NCBI RefSeq assembly: GCF_044324785.1
Contig: NZ_CP172129.1
Length of the DNA stretch: 64,000 nt
Source of the DNA: Escherichia coli
GTDB taxonomy: Bacteria; Pseudomonadota; Gammaproteobacteria; Enterobacterales; Enterobacteriaceae
Reading direction: 5' to 3' (one strand)
Positions 1-38,041 of this stretch are shown in pieces. A program made the translations under genes and the position numbers. Each line of letters opens with the position of its first letter. The first letter of the stretch is position 1. The notes under the pieces were generated by a model that was not told the origin of the DNA, made no database searches, and worked only from the letters and a program-made list of their open reading frames with translations.

Positions 1-978
1 GTGGATAAGTCCTCCGGTGAGCTGGTGACACTGACACCAAACAATAACAACACCGTACAACCTGTGGCGCTGATGCGTCTGGGCGTTTTTGTACCGACCC
101 TTAAATCACTGAAGAACAGTAAAAAAAATACACTGTCACGTACTGATGCCACGGAAGAGCTGACACGTCTTTCCCTGGCCCGTGCTGAGGGATTCGATAA
201 GGTTGAGATCACCGGCCCCCGCCTGGATATGGATAATGATTTCAAGACCTGGGTGGGGATCATTCATTCCTTTGCCCGCCATAACGTGATTGGTGACAAA
301 GTTGAACTGCCTTTTGTTGAGTTTGCAAAACTGTGTGGTATACCTTCAAGCCAGTCATCCCGCAGGCTGCGTGAGCGCATCAGCCCTTCCCTGAAGCGCA
401 TTGCCGGTACCGTGATTTCGTTTTCCCGTACCGATGAGAAGCACACCCGGGAATATATCACCCATCTGGTACAGTCAGCTTACTACGATACTGAGCGGGA
501 TATTGTGCAGTTACAGGCCGATCCCCGCCTGTTTGAACTGTACCAGTTTGACAGAAAAGTCCTTCTCCAGCTTAAGGCGATTAATGCCCTGAAGCGACGG
601 GAGTCCGCCCAGGCACTCTACACCTTTATAGAGAGCCTGCCCCGGGATCCGGCACCGATATCGCTGGCGCGGCTGCGTGCACGCCTCAATCTGAAGTCTC
701 CTGTATTTTCCCAGAACCAGACGGTCAGACGGGCAATGGAGCAGTTGCGCGAGATTGGATATCTTGATTACACGGAGATCCAGCGGGGGCGGACAAAATT
801 CTTCTGTATTCACTACCGGCGTCCCCGGTTAAAAGCGCCGAATGACGAGAGTAAGGAAAATCCGTTGCAACCTTCACCTGCGGAAAAAGTCAGTCCGGAG
901 ATGGCGGAGAAGCTTGCCCTGCTTGAGAAACTGGGCATCACGCTGGATGACCTGGAAAAACTCTTCAAATCCCGCTGA
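1..978 (+). CDS. repA: RepFIB replication initiator protein RepA (iteron-binding Rep); ORF begins with GTG at the window edge
   Basis: 325-aa translation matches the RepFIB RepA family as I recall it ([17 protein letters not shown]...); followed immediately by an iteron array. Confidence 0.85.
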
Positions 979-980
979 AC

Positions 981-1248
981 ATAAACTGTAGTCAGTGAAG
1001 AGCGCTCCTTTACTGACTACAGCTTATATTAACCGGTGCAGTGAGTGGTCTGCTCACTGCAGTTTATATTCTGTTTCCTGCAGTGCTGTCTGTAGCTGAG
1101 CTGCCATCTGCCTGTCCCTTACGTAAGTGATCCCGTAACCTGATGCTGAGGCATTGCTCCCTTCATAAAACATGACTTACTCACTACAGCTTATATACAT
1201 GCTCCAGCTTATGTTATGTCTGTTCTGCTGACCACAGCTTATATAAGG
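981..1248. repeat. RepFIB iteron cluster: direct repeats with core CAGCTTATAT (cores near 1018, 1058, 1187, 1206, 1236) plus one inverted copy at 981-1000
   Basis: Repeated motif ACTACAGCTTATAT seen directly in sequence downstream of repA; 981-1000 is the reverse complement of the iteron core. Confidence 0.8.
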
Positions 1249-1262
1249 AAGCGCGTATGCCG

Positions 1263-2003
1263 TCACCTCAGGGGAGGCAGTGTACGCAGGATCTCCGCAG
1301 CATCCCCCCCGTCACCTGTGAAAGGCACTGCCAGCGTGGCAGCCATATCCAGTGCAAACACTCTGGTATAAACCTCCATCGAACGTGGATCCCTGTGACC
1401 AGCCAGTGCCTGGATGACTTTCCGGGGCTGGCGGTGATAGAGCATGTGCATGATATAGCTGTGCCGGAAGGTGTGTGGTGTGACCGGAATCGAAAAGTGT
1501 ACTCCGTCAGCTTCGGCCCGTCTGACAGCCTGCTTCAGCCAGTTGCGCATGGTTTCGTCGGTCACGGCCCATAATGGTTCACGACGACGGGGCCGGGTGG
1601 TGATCATCCAGCTTTCCATCTGCCTGACATAGCTTATATCTGTCAGCGGAACCAGGCGCACTTCATCTTTTGGCGGGCGTCCGCGTCGCGCACGCACTTT
1701 TTCGGACAGGATCCGCACAAACGGTCTTACTCCATTCAGGTCAAATGATTCCGGCGTCAGCATCCGGGCTTCGCCAATACGCATTCCGGTATTCCAGAGG
1801 GTGGCGAACAGCATATGGTGACGCTGATCCGGCATATAGAAAAGAAGGGCACTCACTTCCGGGGCCAGCAGGTAGGCCGGTGTGGCCCCCGTGGAAGTGG
1901 CCATTCTTCTCAGGGAGAGCGCTGTTGCAAAATCCACCCCCGGCGCAATGGGTAACAGGGAGACGCGTTCTGGTGAATTCTGCAGGGGAATGACATTGTT
2001 CAT
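1263..2003 (-). CDS. int: Tyrosine site-specific recombinase (phage integrase family), RepFIB-associated int
   Basis: 246-aa ORF with the C-terminal catalytic region typical of tyrosine recombinases (HTFRHSY...LAGHRD...Y). Confidence 0.8.
1625..1645. repeat. Additional isolated iteron-like copy (GACATAGCTTATATCTG) lying inside the int coding region
   Basis: Same core motif as the iteron array. Confidence 0.5.
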
Positions 2004-2685
2004 GAGTTATTTTTCACGTAGCACACGCACTGTTTATGGATACAGGTATTCTGACCTGAACGCCCGGATCCTTCCACGACAATAAATCGCAGCGCGCGGA
2101 TCCTTTTGTTTGATTATCACGCATTATTGCGGGTAAAACCAAATACGTAAAGGCGCATTTTGCCGCTGGGATCCCGTCTTAAGCCAGTCATGGTGCGGGC
2201 TGAGGGCTGGTTTACTGTTTTTGGGAGAATTGGGGTAATGCCAGGACAGGCAGAAACGGAGAAAAAATCCTGCAGACGCCCTTAAAAGACAACTGAAAAT
2301 TTCTGACTCCATATTCCTCTGGTTTCAGACTGCTTAATCACATCATCAACCTGATACATAACAAACAGATTCTGTTCACAGAATGAACAATTAAGTAAAT
2401 GGTTAGATTATGCGAAAAAGTACAGATATTTCTCACCATCGTTATTGAATAATATGTCTTCACACAAACAATATTAATATTTTGAGTGTAAGCCCTGACT
2501 CAAAGAAAGAAATGTCTGTTTTCGGAATCAAAAATATATAGTTATCAAAATACATTAATTTCAAATTTGAAATTAATGTAAAACGATTTAGTAAATGTTA
2601 TGATATTATAAATCTACTCCTCCATGTTTAGAGGAGTATTTGCAGACTGGACGCTCTTATATAGTTACTTACCTTTATACATATT

Positions 2686-3594
2686 CTAACATAAGCATTT
2701 ACCAACCTTACAGGGAACAGACCATAGTAGTTTATATTTCCATTCAGGTCTGAATGCACCGATAGAATATATCATCTTTTTATTATTATCCTGACAATAC
2801 CTTCGCGCTTTATCTATATTCAGCCACATAAGGACACTTCCCGGACTTAGTTTCATGCAATTCTCATCATTCAGAACTGCACCATTTGGAACGTCATAAT
2901 AAACATTACATGAGCTTTCAGATTTCAGTACTATATCAATAGCACACGGTTTATTATCCCAGAATAGCACATGGCCAAACATAAGTTCTCGTAAGTGAGA
3001 AATAAACATTAACAGATTATCATATTCGTAGCAAGGTAGGGTACCTCCAAACCGGGAATGAAAAAGTGATATATAAGAGCTGGATATTTCTTTATCGGAT
3101 AACTGGCTTATACACTTAATCTCTCCGCCATTCCTGATAAATCGCTGGATTTCATTTCGGCGAGTTTTTTCAAATTTAGGTGAAAAAGATTCCTTTATAA
3201 TACAATTTTGTTTTTTTCTGGCTATTTTCCATGTTGCATTGATAATATTTTGTTTATTTATAATTGATAATTTATTAGTTTTATCCGGAAAAAAACATCT
3301 TGCATGTGGGGAAAAAGGAATTAATACCTCATCAGATGAAAGAGGATAAGACCTTCTTGCCATTATCCCAATTTGTTTTCCATTGCACAGAAAATATGAG
3401 CCTTTGATATCACCATCTTTTTCATAGTGAAAAAAATCAAACTTCCAGTCATGATGTATCATAAAGTATGAAACAACATCCGGATGCATGTTTACACTAC
3501 CACCGTATTTTTCAAAAGTTTTTTTGTACGTTTCGAATGTAGATGGTTTCCAGGCCGTAATAATGCGCTTTATATTTTTAATTGACAAAGTCAT
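2686..3594 (-). CDS. mig-14: Mig-14 family protein
   Basis: 302-aa AT-rich ORF; position next to hlyF-ompT matches the ColV-plasmid mig-14 arrangement; sequence resembles the Mig-14 family as I recall it. Confidence 0.65.
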   Translation of the reverse strand: MTLSIKNIKRIITAWKPSTFETYKKTFEKYGGSVNMHPDVVSYFMIHHDWKFDFFHYEKDGDIKGSYFLCNGKQIGIMARRSYPLSSDEVLIPFSPHARCFFPDKTNKLSIINKQNIINATWKIARKKQNCIIKESFSPKFEKTRRNEIQRFIRNGGEIKCISQLSDKEISSSYISLFHSRFGGTLPCYEYDNLLMFISHLRELMFGHVLFWDNKPCAIDIVLKSESSCNVYYDVPNGAVLNDENCMKLSPGSVLMWLNIDKARRYCQDNNKKMIYSIGAFRPEWKYKLLWSVPCKVGKCLC

Positions 3595-3656
3595 ATCCTC
3601 GGCGTTTTTATATATTATGAGTGCAACACCAACAATAATTCTGATTATGATAAATA

Positions 3657-4766
3657 TTATTTAAAATCAACTTCCATTTGTTGTTGAATTGAAAGGTGTT
3701 TTGTCGTTTCTATACAGTATTTAATATAATCAGTAAACTTTGGCGGTTTAGGCATTCCGATACTCAGTAGCTTGTCGTTACTGAAACAAACATTGAGCAT
3801 ACTGAACGCTCCATATAAACGAATGGCTTTTAACATAAGGCGTTCGTTACAGGGACCAAAAATATTTTTAAAATCATGACGGCTCATTGCCAGTATGTCA
3901 TAACTGACTTTAGTATATCTGTCTCCAACAGGATCACAGTTCAAAGCACGGGCTACAGCTTCGTCAATAGCAGAGAACGTCACACTACTTTCTTTACCTG
4001 CTGATATATGAACAATCTCACCATTAATTAACGAGCTTTCAAGCAACATTAGCAATGCATCAGCACAATAATCTACAGGGATAACATCTATTTTATCATC
4101 CAGAGAGCACATAAATTTTTGCAACATTAACCCCATTCTGAATACCCAGAAAATACTGGTTGAAGGTAAGCACCCTAAACGACTGTGGCCAACAATAATT
4201 GATGGTCGGGCAACCAACAAAGGTAAATCAGGACACTGCTTACGCATCAGATATTCTATTGTTGCTTTTGAATGCGTATACTCCACTAAATGTTCACCTG
4301 TTTCTGATGAAGCAGACTCTTCCTTAACTAGCGACCCCGTATGAGGTGTACAAGACATAGCAGTACCAACATGAAGGAAGCGTTTCAGTCCTGCCACTTT
4401 TGCCATTCTTCTTGCAAAAGCAAGTGTACCTGTAACATTCACATTCCATATAAAAGGATTATTACCAAAAGAAGCTATAGCCGCACAGTTTATAACATGA
4501 GTGACTTCATCAAGACGAGGATCCATGAGAAAGGCTTCCGGATTATTTAGATCCCCAGGCAAGATGTTATCATTAGTTAATGCATGCAACCTTTCCTCAC
4601 AAACATTAAATTTACGCATATTTTCTTTAATTCTTTCCAGTCCCGCTTGTGGAGTAGGTGCTCGTACTAAAAGTAGCAAATTTATATTATTACAGTTATC
4701 CAGCAGCTTATCCAGGACCGCGCCACCAAGAAATCCTGTTGCACCTGTAAGTAATAATAATTTCAT
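3657..4766 (-). CDS. hlyF: HlyF, SDR-family NAD(P)-dependent epimerase/dehydratase-like protein
   Basis: 369-aa ORF with N-terminal Rossmann motif TGATGFLG; matches ColV-plasmid HlyF. Confidence 0.85.
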   Translation of the reverse strand: MKLLLLTGATGFLGGAVLDKLLDNCNNINLLLLVRAPTPQAGLERIKENMRKFNVCEERLHALTNDNILPGDLNNPEAFLMDPRLDEVTHVINCAAIASFGNNPFIWNVNVTGTLAFARRMAKVAGLKRFLHVGTAMSCTPHTGSLVKEESASSETGEHLVEYTHSKATIEYLMRKQCPDLPLLVARPSIIVGHSRLGCLPSTSIFWVFRMGLMLQKFMCSLDDKIDVIPVDYCADALLMLLESSLINGEIVHISAGKESSVTFSAIDEAVARALNCDPVGDRYTKVSYDILAMSRHDFKNIFGPCNERLMLKAIRLYGAFSMLNVCFSNDKLLSIGMPKPPKFTDYIKYCIETTKHLSIQQQMEVDFK

Positions 4767-5198
4767 ATCTAACCTCTTTTGTTTTCATGTGATCATTATA
4801 AAAATAAATTATCTTACATAAACAATGATTAAACAAAATCAAGAGAGATTAAATGTAAAAACAATGTTTATTTTTATACGGCAGAATCCTTCAGGTTATT
4901 GCGTGTGTTTTTATTGGATGGTCTTCTTATTATTGACGAGTAATAGAATTATAATAAAGTTCATATTGTTAACATCGCTTATCAATTATTTTTATGTCGA
5001 TAACACTGTGTCGTTATGCATGAAGAGTGGCAGGGCAGCATCTTTAAAAATACAAGAGTTAACAGAAACACTTTTATCGTTGAGCACATATACCCTCCAC
5101 ATATTATAAAAAATCAAAAGACCACCATCAGAAGTGCTGGCCTTTTGTTTATCATATTTAAAGTGTCATGAAAAAGTTAAAAACAGGCATGCTTCAGG

Positions 5199-6158
5199 TT
5201 AAAAATAATACTTCAGACCAGCTGTGGTCATAAAGTTATAGCTTTCAATGCCTGCACCATTTTTGGTGTGATCAGATATATTCAAATTTCTGGAGTACAG
5301 AGAAGTATCACCTTTCTTATTAGTAATACGGTTCCATGTTCCTTCGACATAAACTTTAGCTGCAGGTGTAATATAATAACCAGCATGTAGTGAGACAGAG
5401 TAATAGTTCTGATTATTTACATCGCTACGATAGGTGATCCTTTTCTCAGGGTTGTAATGCTCATCATTATCCGATGCCTTCACCCATCCGCTATATTTGA
5501 AACTCCCCCCGAACTCAAAGCTATCATACCGATAATTACCGGTTAACCCTATATAGGGCATTTTAAAGTGTTGTTTGTAGCCTATAGCTCTTTCACCATC
5601 TGGAAATGATCCCGTTTCATCCCGGAAGCCTCCCTCACTACTATAGATATAAGAGCCTCCTTTTGCTGTAAAGCTATAACGATTTTCCTGGTAACCAGCC
5701 ATAAGACCTAACTGATAGTCTGGTTGATTCAGGAGCCATCCCTTAATATTCAGGTCGAATTCATTAGCAAAATTTAGACGGGTATTCGGATGTTTACTCT
5801 CATCAGTCCAGGTTCCGGGATTGCTCGTATCCAGCCAGTCCCTGTCCACCATATTGCCTCCACGACCAGCTAATGTTGTCCACCCTGAGGCACCGACAGA
5901 TACTCTGGGTAACAGATCCCAGTTAAATGCCCCCTTGACAATTGGCGCATTACTGTATTTCCAGTCCAGCTGGCTGGCTTTGCGCCCTTTTTCTTCAGGC
6001 AGATAAACCCGTTCTTTGGCCTTGCCACTTAAAGTGCCAAAATCAATCTCCGTACTGATTTTCTCCGGTGTAAAAGAAAGCCCAGTATCAGAAGCCAGTG
6101 CAGCAAACGCTACAGGAGCTGAGAGTGCAGTAGCAAGAATCTTTAAGTACATAGACAA
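5199..6158 (-). CDS. ompT: Plasmid-borne omptin outer-membrane protease (OmpT-like)
   Basis: 319-aa ORF with signal peptide and strong similarity to the omptin family (…NMVDRDWLDTSNPGTWTDES…AGLKYYF). Confidence 0.85.
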   Translation of the reverse strand: MSMYLKILATALSAPVAFAALASDTGLSFTPEKISTEIDFGTLSGKAKERVYLPEEKGRKASQLDWKYSNAPIVKGAFNWDLLPRVSVGASGWTTLAGRGGNMVDRDWLDTSNPGTWTDESKHPNTRLNFANEFDLNIKGWLLNQPDYQLGLMAGYQENRYSFTAKGGSYIYSSEGGFRDETGSFPDGERAIGYKQHFKMPYIGLTGNYRYDSFEFGGSFKYSGWVKASDNDEHYNPEKRITYRSDVNNQNYYSVSLHAGYYITPAAKVYVEGTWNRITNKKGDTSLYSRNLNISDHTKNGAGIESYNFMTTAGLKYYF

Positions 6159-33974: not shown

Positions 33975-36152
33975 TCAGAATGATGCGGTAACTCCGGCAT
34001 AGTAAGCCCGGCCTGGCTCGTTATAGGTATTCGCCCCTTCAGAAGATCGGAAGATCTGTTTATTGAGGATATTACTGACGCCGACATTAAGACGCAGATT
34101 TTTATTAATATCGTAATTGAAGTTCGTCCCCACCAGTGAATAAGCGCCCAGCTCTTTACCTGACAGACCGCCAGTATCTTCACTGCGGGTTTCCGCATGA
34201 GTACGCGGTTTTTGTCTGCCATATAACGTCCAGTTGACGCTGGCAGAAAACGCCTGGGTGATGGTCCAGTTAAGCGAGTTATTGATAGTATATTTCGGGA
34301 TGACCGACAGAGGATTACCGGTGTCTTTTTGCTCCGAAGTGATCATCCATGTGGCATTGGTATTCCAGTTCAGACGATCTTTCACCAGTGGGAAAGACAT
34401 ACTGGCTTCGATACCGTCCACCAGAGCTTTCCCGCCATTCTGCCACTTGAGGATATATGCGCCTGAAGCGGTTTGCCCGATAACGTTATCCCCGGCCACG
34501 ATCTTATTCTGGTAATCATTGCGGAAGTAGGTCACACTTGCGTGGTAATCTTCCCAGGTGAACTCCAGCCCAATTTCTTTATTGACGCTGATTTCCGGAT
34601 CGAGATCTTTATTACCGATCAGGTAGCACCCGCCTGATGTAATATCTTTTGGACAGCCATTGCCTTTCGAGTAGAGCAGATAGCCTTCACTGGATTGATA
34701 CAGGTTTGGGGCTTTAAAGGTTCGGGCAACCCCTGCTTTGACTTTGAAATAATCGCCCAATTCCTGCGAAAGATTCAGACTGGGGCTGAAGTTCCCGCCG
34801 GAGTCGCTGAGATAATCAAAGCGCAGGCCGGGAATGATATTCGTGCCAGGAACCGGCTCAATGTTATCTTCAATATACAGCGCACTGATTTGAGAATGAT
34901 TTTTACTGCTGCGATCCGCAGCAGAGCCAGAAATACCGCTGATATCACTGTCATTCACCGTCAGGCTGGTAGAGGAAGGATCATCGAGCTTATCGCGGTT
35001 CCACTCTGCACCAACGGTCAGCGTTTGATCAACCATCACATTCAAAGGAATATTAAGCTCGCCGCTGGTTCGCCAGGAACTCAGGCGATTGGTCGTAAAC
35101 TTTTCACCCGCTAAAATACGCCCTTCACCACCGCCGGATAATCCTTCATTCATGCGGGTATTATTGGTTTTCTCGTAATAAACACCAAAGCGACTTTGTC
35201 CCCAGTCCCAGATACCATTATGCGTAATGCCATAATTCTGTCGGTACAGGCGGTTCGTCTCTTTGCCGGATTTTGCCAGGCTTTCGGTAACTGCACTGGA
35301 AGAACTGTTTTGCGTATCGCCCGCATAGATATTCCCCTGGCGGCTATATCCGGCTTCGAAATCGAGAATCTGCTGCGGATTTAATTTCCACGAGACAACG
35401 CCGTTAATATCTTTGTTACGTACCCCTTCATGCCCGGCTGCGTTTTTCGTACCGACCGGAGAATTAATATCCCAACTGTCAGCATCCGTTTTATTCAGGT
35501 TACCATACAAACGCGTGGTAAGAGCATTACCAGCCAGAGGCCCACTAAGGCTGAAATTGGCGCGACGCGTAGCGCCCTCATCGCTACTTTCCGGCTGATT
35601 GGTGTATAACGACAGCGAACCGTGCCAGTCGTTGGTGGGACGTTTGGTAATGATGTTCACCACCCCCCCGGCTGCCCCCGAACCGTAGCGCGCCGCCGCA
35701 GGGCCGCGGATCACTTCAATACGCTCAACCTGTTCCGGTGGCACCCAGTTGGTGTCACCGCGGGTATCACGCTCTCCACGCCAGCTATAACGCACGGAGT
35801 TACGTGACGTCACCGGTACACCATCAATTAAAATTAAGGTGTTTTCCGGCCCCATACCACGAATATCGATCTGGCGGTTGTTACCGCGTGTGCCCGAGGC
35901 GCTATTGCCGGTAAGATTGACGCCAGGCATTTTACGAATAATATCTGAAAGGTCGTTTACCGGAGGGGTCTTTTTAATATCCTCGCTGGTAATAACCGAC
36001 ACGCCCGGCTGCTGTTTTAATACCTGCTCAGCGGTGGCTTCCACCACCAGAGTCTCGTCATTATCATCGTCGGAGGATTTGGCTACTGATACCTGGCTAT
36101 TCAACCCAACCAGGAGCACAGTTAGCGACCAGAGGATTTTGTTAATTCTCAT
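33975..36152 (-). CDS. iroN: IroN, TonB-dependent outer-membrane receptor for salmochelin/catecholate siderophores
   Basis: 725-aa ORF with signal peptide, TonB box (…DETLVVEA…), plug and barrel, ending in the terminal aromatic motif …GVTASF. Confidence 0.9.
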   Translation of the reverse strand: MRINKILWSLTVLLVGLNSQVSVAKSSDDDNDETLVVEATAEQVLKQQPGVSVITSEDIKKTPPVNDLSDIIRKMPGVNLTGNSASGTRGNNRQIDIRGMGPENTLILIDGVPVTSRNSVRYSWRGERDTRGDTNWVPPEQVERIEVIRGPAAARYGSGAAGGVVNIITKRPTNDWHGSLSLYTNQPESSDEGATRRANFSLSGPLAGNALTTRLYGNLNKTDADSWDINSPVGTKNAAGHEGVRNKDINGVVSWKLNPQQILDFEAGYSRQGNIYAGDTQNSSSSAVTESLAKSGKETNRLYRQNYGITHNGIWDWGQSRFGVYYEKTNNTRMNEGLSGGGEGRILAGEKFTTNRLSSWRTSGELNIPLNVMVDQTLTVGAEWNRDKLDDPSSTSLTVNDSDISGISGSAADRSSKNHSQISALYIEDNIEPVPGTNIIPGLRFDYLSDSGGNFSPSLNLSQELGDYFKVKAGVARTFKAPNLYQSSEGYLLYSKGNGCPKDITSGGCYLIGNKDLDPEISVNKEIGLEFTWEDYHASVTYFRNDYQNKIVAGDNVIGQTASGAYILKWQNGGKALVDGIEASMSFPLVKDRLNWNTNATWMITSEQKDTGNPLSVIPKYTINNSLNWTITQAFSASVNWTLYGRQKPRTHAETRSEDTGGLSGKELGAYSLVGTNFNYDINKNLRLNVGVSNILNKQIFRSSEGANTYNEPGRAYYAGVTASF

Positions 36153-36247
36153 ACCTATTCCCTAATAAATGCCTAACTTAAAATGTTTGATCGTTAAGCT
36201 CACATCCTTGCCAGATATTTTTTACTGCCATTATTGTTTTTATATAA

Positions 36248-36267
36248 GAATGATAATTAATATCATT
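36248..36267. promoter_or_regulatory. Fur box in the iroN promoter
   Basis: GAATGATAATTAATATCATT, about 100 bp upstream of the iroN start, close match to the Fur consensus. Confidence 0.6.
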
Positions 36268-37006
36268 TAGCAAAAAAAAAAGCAATCCCTCACAAGATAA
36301 ATATATCGATTTTTCATAAATATCAAATTGATATATAACATATGTTTTTTATTTCATTGCACTTGTCGATCATCGGGAATTTTGTCACAATTTCTCACGG
36401 ATAGTGTTCACATTGTTTCTGACCTGCATTTCAGGCGCGGGCGCTGCTTATGTATATAAGGGCCTGTGGTCGACGAATCAGCATAATCAGATCTTCCTGC
36501 GAGCAATTTCTTTCAGCGTATCAGGCAGCACTATCGGATTATCTACGTGCGTTTTTGATTCACATTGTGTGTGAAACTTCATACATCATGATTCGCTTTC
36601 CCTACTCAGTTCTGATGATTGTTTTTTATTCTATTAACACGGAGTTAAGATTCTACCCTCGGTGTCCTCATTATTAATGAGGAATGCTACCTATCTAAAA
36701 ACTGACCGAAACTTTGGGGCATCCCTGGAGGTTTCCAAGGAGAAAAAGGTGACAGTGATAGTGCCACATTGTGAGGAAATTCCTGAGAAACTCCTGGTTC
36801 ACACACATAATTCAGGAGTTTGCCATAGATAGTAACCAATTGTTTTATATTTTAAGACCATTAAATACGCGGCTACGATAGCGCTTTATATAATCATAAA
36901 CTGTAGAGATAAAATATCTGCTTCTCTGATAACACTAATTGAGTGTCTTAAACTAAGTAATTTCATTTTTCCCCCTTTAAAAGCAATATATGTGCAATAG
37001 TTGAAG

Positions 37007-38041
37007 TTAAAGCTGTGCTGCCAGAGTTGATAATAATTGTTCTGTCTGTTGCCATGATATGCATTCATCAGTAACAGACTGACCATACTCTAGCGGAAAA
37101 CTATCGGATTGTTTTCCATCTTGTAAAAAGCTTTCCACCATAATGCCAGCTACATATCCTGGTATTTTTTTCCGATTATCTATAACTTGACGTGCAACGG
37201 AAATTTGCCGTTTAGCCACTTTACCGCTATTACCATGGCTACAATCAATTATCAGACGATGGTTAATACCCTCATCATGCATTAATTTCACTGCCTTAGT
37301 TATATCAGACAAACCATAGTTAGGTTCTCTACCTCCACGTAATATTAGATGTCCATGTGGATTGCCATCGGTTAATAGTGTAGATATACTATTTGTTAAA
37401 GATGTCATATATACAATATGTTGTTCACGGGCTGCAATAATAGCGTCAATAGCTAAGTTAATATTTCCATCAGTACTGTTTTTAAATCCAACTGGACAAT
37501 GTAAACCAGACGCAAGTTGACGATGCGTTTGTGATTCAGTGGTTCTGGCACCAATAGCACCCCAACATATTAAATCAGCAATATAGGGAGTAAGAAAAGG
37601 ATCGAGGAATTCTGTAGCGGTTGCGACACGCATCGTTGTGATTGAAGACAAACACTGGCGAGCATATCGTATCCCTTTCTCAACATCATAACTTCCATTT
37701 AGATCAGGATCGTGCATTATTCCCTTCCAGCCTTTACGGGTTCGAGGTTTCTCAAAATAAGTGCGCATTACAATGTACATTTTCGATAAGTACTTATTCT
37801 GTAATACGAACAATCGCTTCGCATAATCAACTGCGGCCTGAACGTCATGGATTGAGCATGGACCAACAATCACAAGTAAGCGAGGATCTTTTCCCAGCAA
37901 AATATTCGCTATAATATCTCGTTGCAGAGAGATCCATGTTACGGTTTCTTCCGATACTGCGATTTCTTTATGAATCTCGCCCACAGTGGGTAAACTGCCA
38001 AGCAACTTCCCGCGGTAGATTAATTTACTAGCTGACTGCAT
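37007..38041 (-). CDS. Class I 3-deoxy-7-phosphoheptulonate (DAHP) synthase, AroG/AroF/AroH-like
   Basis: 344-aa ORF with DAHP synthase I features (…LLVIVGPCSIHD…IDCSHGNS…). Confidence 0.8.
   Translation of the reverse strand: MQSASKLIYRGKLLGSLPTVGEIHKEIAVSEETVTWISLQRDIIANILLGKDPRLLVIVGPCSIHDVQAAVDYAKRLFVLQNKYLSKMYIVMRTYFEKPRTRKGWKGIMHDPDLNGSYDVEKGIRYARQCLSSITTMRVATATEFLDPFLTPYIADLICWGAIGARTTESQTHRQLASGLHCPVGFKNSTDGNINLAIDAIIAAREQHIVYMTSLTNSISTLLTDGNPHGHLILRGGREPNYGLSDITKAVKLMHDEGINHRLIIDCSHGNSGKVAKRQISVARQVIDNRKKIPGYVAGIMVESFLQDGKQSDSFPLEYGQSVTDECISWQQTEQLLSTLAAQL

Follow-up and report, generated by a model that had tools for sequence, protein, structure and literature searches.

The closest described relatives of the locus considered here are the RepFIB replicons of the plasmids F, pO157 and P307. 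In incC of the F RepFIA replicon (mini-F) and in incA of P1, a second cluster of iterons likewise lies beyond the rep gene, and P1 incA also has repeats in both orientations. For P307, binding of RepA to the repeats was reportedly described by Spiers et al. in 1993. The FIB replicons of F and pO157 were aligned by Lloyd, Stephens, Di Maio and Thomas (NAR 2025, PMC11983097), whose Supplementary Fig. S2 marks iterons B to D* upstream of rep and iterons E to K downstream of it. In the same work each of the two blocks was placed by itself on a P15A vector, and a pO157 FIB replicon was displaced by the downstream block alone but not by the upstream block BCDD' (PMC11983097, Table 3). The displacing block is called EFGHIJ in the text of that paper and "E to K" in the footnote of Table 3. 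Its authors propose RepA handcuffing between the downstream and the origin iterons, as in the incC/ori2 system of mini-F. Second clusters of this type are dispensable for initiation, exert incompatibility and negative copy control, and are thought to handcuff the origin (PMC11983097). The FIB block differs from incC and incA in several respects. The iteron sequences are unrelated and the initiators only distantly related; a further difference is that two of the FIB iterons stand head-to-head right at the rep stop codon and another lies within the neighbouring gene.

In the window (the whole stretch of 64,000 nucleotides of Escherichia coli DNA that was analysed), repA occupies positions 1-978 on the plus strand and encodes a RepFIB initiator of the Rep3/RepB family (Pfam Rep3_N, E=5.9e-11), which differs from the F plasmid Rep by one amino acid. 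The gene is annotated from an internal GTG codon, and many database records begin repA in the same way. Translation of FIB repA starts 14 codons upstream of this position, at a CTG codon (MENENSDIKKLFGE...; PMC11983097). The identical plasmid L007 agrees with this: the DNA upstream of its GTG reads CTGGAAAACGAAAAT... and encodes the MENENSDIKKLFGE N-terminus of Fig. S2 in PMC11983097. The CTG start lies upstream, outside the window, and the annotated RepA is thus N-terminally short. Convergent with repA is int (1263-2003, minus strand), encoding a tyrosine recombinase of 246 amino acids (Pfam Phage_integrase, E=1.4e-14) with three amino-acid differences from the F Int. In the F record NC_002483, rep was located at 36643-37620 (minus) and int at 35618-36358 (plus) and then aligned with the window. 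The identity between the window and F was 97.4% over positions 940-1700.

Six copies (E to J) of a repeat of about 22 bp, with the core CAGYTTATRT, lie within the 285 bp separating the stop codons of repA and int. Iteron E (979-1000, minus strand; ACATAAACTGTAGTCAGTGAAG) has its first base 1 nt past the repA stop codon. It is followed on the plus strand by iteron F (1008-1029; CTTTACTGACTACAGCTTATAT), the closest of all copies to the consensus, and both are identical to their counterparts in the F plasmid. Three further plus-strand copies differ from the F plasmid: G (1048-1069; GTCTGCTCACTGCAGTTTATAT) by one base, H (1175-1196) by three, and I (1193-1214; core CCAGCTTATGT), the 22-mer of which overlaps H by 4 nt, by two. 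Iteron J (1223-1244, plus strand) is again identical to the F plasmid and ends 18 nt ahead of the int stop codon. Iteron K (1618-1639, plus strand; ATCTGCCTGACATAGCTTATAT) is located inside int, with its core ATAGCTTATAT at 1629-1639, and coincides with int codons 121-129 (T-D-I-S-Y-V-R-Q-M). The copies listed in the initial annotation, namely at least five direct repeats, an inverted one at 981-1000 and one more at about 1628-1638 within int, are all present, the coordinates being off by 1-2 nt.

The origin iterons B, C, D, D' and D* lie outside the window and were read from plasmid L007, which matches window positions 900-1700 at 100%. In this plasmid they run in a single direction with the regular spacing of 21, 21, 21 and 23 bp, and in L013, too, they share one direction and lie 21-23 bp apart. 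In contrast, the downstream iterons are spaced irregularly (40, 127, 18, 30 and 395 bp), and all of them but E are opposite to the origin orientation. Iteron E is inverted with respect to F-K, yet it points the same way as iterons B-D* upstream of repA; hence the five "direct" copies are those that are inverted relative to the origin. Both groups constitute one repeat family, the CAGYTTAT core being common to origin and downstream iterons.

The repeats are non-random. The 64 kb contain just three exact copies of the 11-mer ACAGCTTATAT (1019, 1186 and 1234), all of them within 226 bp. When one mismatch at most is allowed, the core has seven matches against 1.14 expected in 64 kb, a number reached in none of 100 shuffles. 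A 22-nt weight matrix was applied in leave-one-out fashion over 12 iterons of the replicon, five of them being the origin iterons from L007. All 12 scored between 14.6 and 27.4 bits (15.5-27.4 for the downstream iterons E-K), and not one of 117,978 background positions reached the leave-one-out score of any iteron. An Rfam scan of 900-2700 returned nothing beyond a sub-threshold miRNA match, considered to be noise.

The number, order and orientation of the copies are those of the published map, with E inverted, F-J direct and K about 375 bp further on. The locus shares gene order, positions and orientations with the RepFIB replicons of F, pO157 and P307, and the sequences are nearly the same; they differ only at single bases of the spacers and of iterons G, H and I, and in the backbone, which is of the ColV type here. 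The initial annotation had recognized a RepFIB iteron array in this DNA. This holds: the array runs in the same order as iterons E-K of F and pO157 and is nearly identical to them, and on alignment with the characterised F RepFIB origin the repeats match the consensus. We consider it highly probable that 979-1244 and 1618-1639 together make up the control (incompatibility) block of downstream RepFIB iterons, the same element as E-K of F and pO157. The array is an ordinary one that is already known: the standard, nearly F-identical E-K block.

The suggestion that these repeats contribute to copy-number control agrees with the published displacement of the FIB replicon by the downstream block, bearing in mind that the displacement data were obtained with the pO157 block and that the window array is 97.4% identical to that of F, which is set beside pO157 in Fig. 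S2 (PMC11983097). According to the handcuffing model, RepA encoded by 1-978 would bind the sites of about 21 bp in the downstream block, and the bound RepA would pair with RepA on the origin iterons B-D*. The pairing could take place within one plasmid or between plasmids, so that the origin would be shut as the copy number rises, and it would also render co-resident FIB plasmids incompatible. Iteron E would simply be an iteron that is oriented as in the origin and faces F head-to-head. We infer both the binding of RepA to E and K individually and handcuffing as the mechanism. The anatomy of the locus, a regular one-way origin array and an irregular downstream array mostly in the opposite direction, fits this model.

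A comparable layout recurs in replicons with entirely different iterons. In the Klebsiella FIB(K) replicon the iterons have an unrelated sequence, TTGACTGNNNTATGC. In a Pantoea plasmid they read CATGAAAGTRRATACCT, with about 14 downstream copies in both orientations. The relatives from Klebsiella, Pantoea and Erwinia all combine a regular origin array with an irregular downstream array of mixed orientation, in spite of unrelated iteron sequences, so that an inverted copy in the control block is nothing unusual among replicons of this class. The IncFIB(K) and Pantoea/Erwinia Rep3-int modules resemble the present locus in having Rep convergent with a conserved int and the same two-array arrangement. 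They differ from it in the iteron sequences, in the extra DNA between the array and int, and in having no iteron inside int. In Klebsiella, a lone iteron is found about 290 bp past the array, in the spacer before int, and this hints that a remote iteron copy may be a recurring feature.

Natural variants of the E-K block were encountered as well. Iteron J, single in the window, occurs elsewhere as a palindromic double iteron (e.g. ACAGCTTATATAAGCTGT) whose copies share a TATATA core. This double J is present in Salmonella, Citrobacter and Enterobacter lineages and in one lineage of E. coli (L001, 3001-3036; L004, about 1262-1300; L005, about 1260-1296; L015, 2072-2111). In L014 an insertion of about 1.75 kb separates G from H (1090-2845), and the plasmid also carries a FIA replicon.

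Iteron K scores 15.5 bits with the matrix built from the other 11 iterons, as compared to 15.2 and 14.6 for the accepted origin iterons C and D'. A full scan with the iteron matrix gave, within the first 5 kb, one site at 3899-3920 (plus strand), CATAACTGACTTTAGTATATCT, in a gene encoding an hlyF-like SDR protein; this site scores 17 bits, slightly more than K. It resembles the origin iteron D' and is probably a chance match in AT-rich DNA. Since such a site outscores K, the iteron status of K cannot rest on the sequence match alone; it is conservation that supports it.

The int DNA was compared in the window, L006, L005, Citrobacter L004 and Salmonella L001, which diverge by up to 22%. In these five sequences positions 1616-1640 form an unbroken invariant run of 25 nt, the second-longest in int, against 49% of invariant columns in the gene as a whole. 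Altogether K is invariant in seven plasmids, and it is identical in F and in an Enterobacter plasmid. The invariant copies include that of a Salmonella pSLT-like plasmid, where int is frameshifted and reduced to a truncated remnant. In the protein, K sits on the most variable dipeptide of Int, homologues of which read, among others, LTD-IS-Y, AS-F, GS-F, ES-Y, PA-Y, AG-Y and QG-Y. The only ATA codon of int lies in K, as does an AGG codon. All this speaks for K being preserved as a DNA sequence and not solely through its codons.

An alternative is that K is a fortuitous match in int which persists through coding constraint and shared ancestry and has no iteron function. Its core carries one mismatch, and about one such match per 64 kb is expected by chance; the chance site at 3899-3920 is the stronger of the two; and the int genes of Klebsiella, Pantoea and Erwinia lack K altogether. 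Viable plasmids without K also exist. In L013 (1800-2711) iterons E-J are kept, and IS1 stands immediately after J in place of int and K. K can thus be dispensed with, at least where the plasmid has a FIA replicon as well, as in L013. Against a fortuitous match stand the invariant run in an otherwise variable gene, its position over the least constrained residues of Int, its survival in the frameshifted Salmonella remnant, the sole ATA codon together with the AGG codon, the left extension TCTGC held in common with G and J, and the lone outlying iteron of the Klebsiella replicons. A chance origin of K is on balance unlikely, though by no means negligible. To judge from the sequence comparisons, K is most likely an auxiliary, non-essential RepA site placed in a tolerant stretch of the int frame.

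Two further ideas concerning int were considered and rejected. The first was that the variable Int dipeptide (LTD-xx-Y/F) always hides a local iteron; it was abandoned because there is none at this place in Klebsiella and none anywhere in the int genes of Pantoea and Erwinia. The second concerned the longest invariant run in int, 1447-1472, as another hidden iteron. This run holds ATATAGCTGT, which is one base short of the inverted core. It encodes the catalytic R-H-S-Y-I-M-H box, which is equally conserved in Klebsiella with its different iterons, and is therefore explained by coding constraint.

The head-to-head iterons E and F form a palindrome at 986-1022, with a stem of 15 bp and a spacer of 7 nt. 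As the stem is flanked by the iteron cores, it has T-rich tails on both strands. Another hairpin, at 1037-1061, pairs iteron G with an inverted repeat of its left half (TGCAGTGAG) that precedes it; the GTGAG-N7-CTCAC element of this hairpin is retained in diverged plasmids. The two hairpins start 8 and 59 nt past the repA stop codon, and both are terminator-like matches. The RNA of the E/F palindrome folds with -26.5 kcal/mol on the plus (repA) strand (z -6.4) and with -33.1 kcal/mol on the minus (int) strand (z -8.2); the corresponding value for 1037-1061 is -16.4 kcal/mol (z -2.7, plus strand). The number of terminator-like matches in the region, two as compared to 1.4 in shuffles, is not above expectation. 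Across nine plasmids the spacing between E and F is invariant, the spacer sequence is free, and 91% of the pairs (counted as cells) hold.

It is plausible that the E/F palindrome serves as a bidirectional hairpin terminator between the convergent repA and int. This could be carried further by assuming that the palindrome and the 1037-1061 hairpin are mainly terminators or mRNA 3' stabilisers of repA and int and that their likeness to iterons is secondary. In favour of this stand the strong hairpins with T-rich tails shortly past the repA stop codon and the several E/F differences that are G-U-compatible on the repA strand. However, the matrix scores of E and F are those of complete iterons, with the core beyond the stem included, and in the covariation test the two-sided E/F changes were explained equally well by a concerted, lineage-wide change of all iterons. 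We regard a primarily terminator-type role as unlikely. A terminator role and the binding of RepA are not mutually exclusive.

Combining these possibilities, K could be a working RepA site about 375 bp away from the main block, and E/F could be both a RepA site and a bidirectional terminator. Such a joint reading is quite doubtful as a whole. If it were true, K might help to loop or handcuff the replicon, or RepA bound to K might block the transcription of int. K would then couple RepA occupancy, and with it copy number, to the expression of a ResD-like recombinase, while the E/F palindrome would insulate the convergent repA and int from each other. Selection at the level of DNA would in this case explain the perfect conservation of K both on a hypervariable dipeptide and in an int pseudogene.

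The initial annotation also allowed that the inverted pair or the intragenic iteron might form the recombination site of Int. Int is a paralogue of the ResD resolvase of the F plasmid (47% identity over the full length, E=3e-66). Between the window and Klebsiella FIB(K), the Int protein is about 92% identical and the DNA about 80%; on sequence grounds, int is under strong purifying selection. In the rep-int intergenic DNA, no significant similarity was found between the E. coli and the Klebsiella types. Since Int is conserved across lineages of which the iteron regions share nothing, the iterons as an Int target are unsupported. It is accordingly very improbable that the E/F pair or K is an Int core site with an Int monomer on each of its two arms of about 15 bp, as in lox, dif and rfs: the inverted arms, the 7-nt spacer of fixed spacing and free sequence in nine plasmids and the closeness to int do recall a tyrosine-recombinase core, but the arms are full iterons of the RepA-binding family, which explains the geometry without Int, Klebsiella FIB(K) keeps Int with unrelated iterons and no head-to-head pair after rep, the Pantoea and Erwinia plasmids have different iterons and none within int, and the DNA that co-varies with int lies upstream of it.

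This upstream DNA is a conserved non-coding block (2004-2260, minus strand) with a promoter-like site and GGATCC elements. Its 256 bp are 86% identical to Klebsiella and are thus more conserved than int itself. The motifs AAAGGATCCTTTACG ... CGCAATAATGCG ... GGATCC ... GCGATTTATTG persist in Pantoea and Erwinia. The promoter-like site faces int on the minus strand, with a -35 element TTTACG at 2151 and a -10 element AATAAT ending at 2123. Of the GGATCC palindromes, the first is degenerate in the window; they stand out better in Klebsiella, Citrobacter, Pantoea and Erwinia. No inverted-repeat core site above noise was found in 1995-2320 of this copy. The block, and not the iterons, is the DNA that varies together with int, and it is a better candidate than the iterons both for the regulation of Int, as a likely promoter/operator of int, and for its target site. 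An ORF of 62 amino acids (2124-2312, minus strand) is listed as a "hypothetical protein" in related records and once as a "serine/threonine protein kinase"; lying wholly within the upstream block, it is probably not a gene.

Int can be compared with the ResD/rfsF system of multimer resolution in F, in view of its 47% identity to ResD and of its similar linkage to an iteron replicon. The rfsF site is presumably located upstream of ccdA in F. Neither the int-upstream block nor the iteron block showed DNA similarity to the rfsF/oriV1 region upstream of ccdA, and a literature search found no target site or function for this Int. From E. coli to Pantoea and Erwinia, the gene for Int converges on a rep gene of the Rep3 family, so that rep-int looks like a conserved module.

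The replicon is situated on a ColV-type virulence and resistance backbone, with mig-14, hlyF (SDR), ompT and etsABC after int (2686-6152) and cvaB, a colicin Ia-related gene, TnAs1 and a class 1 integron further along (40000-64000). In PLSDB, 4,393 of 72,556 records match the 800 bp of window 900-1700, 2,883 of these over at least 80% of the length. Thousands of Enterobacteriaceae plasmids with virulence and resistance genes thus have a FIB replicon, and the downstream iterons have been the best-working part in plasmid-curing cassettes (PMC11983097). Recognition of the standard E-K block in this plasmid helps annotation and the prediction of incompatibility, without bringing new biology. The orientation logic of E and the possible bidirectional terminator add supporting detail and leave the classification unchanged. 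Two points go modestly beyond the literature: the conservation of K at the level of DNA, independent of int coding, and the probable action of Int on the conserved block ahead of int instead of on the iterons.
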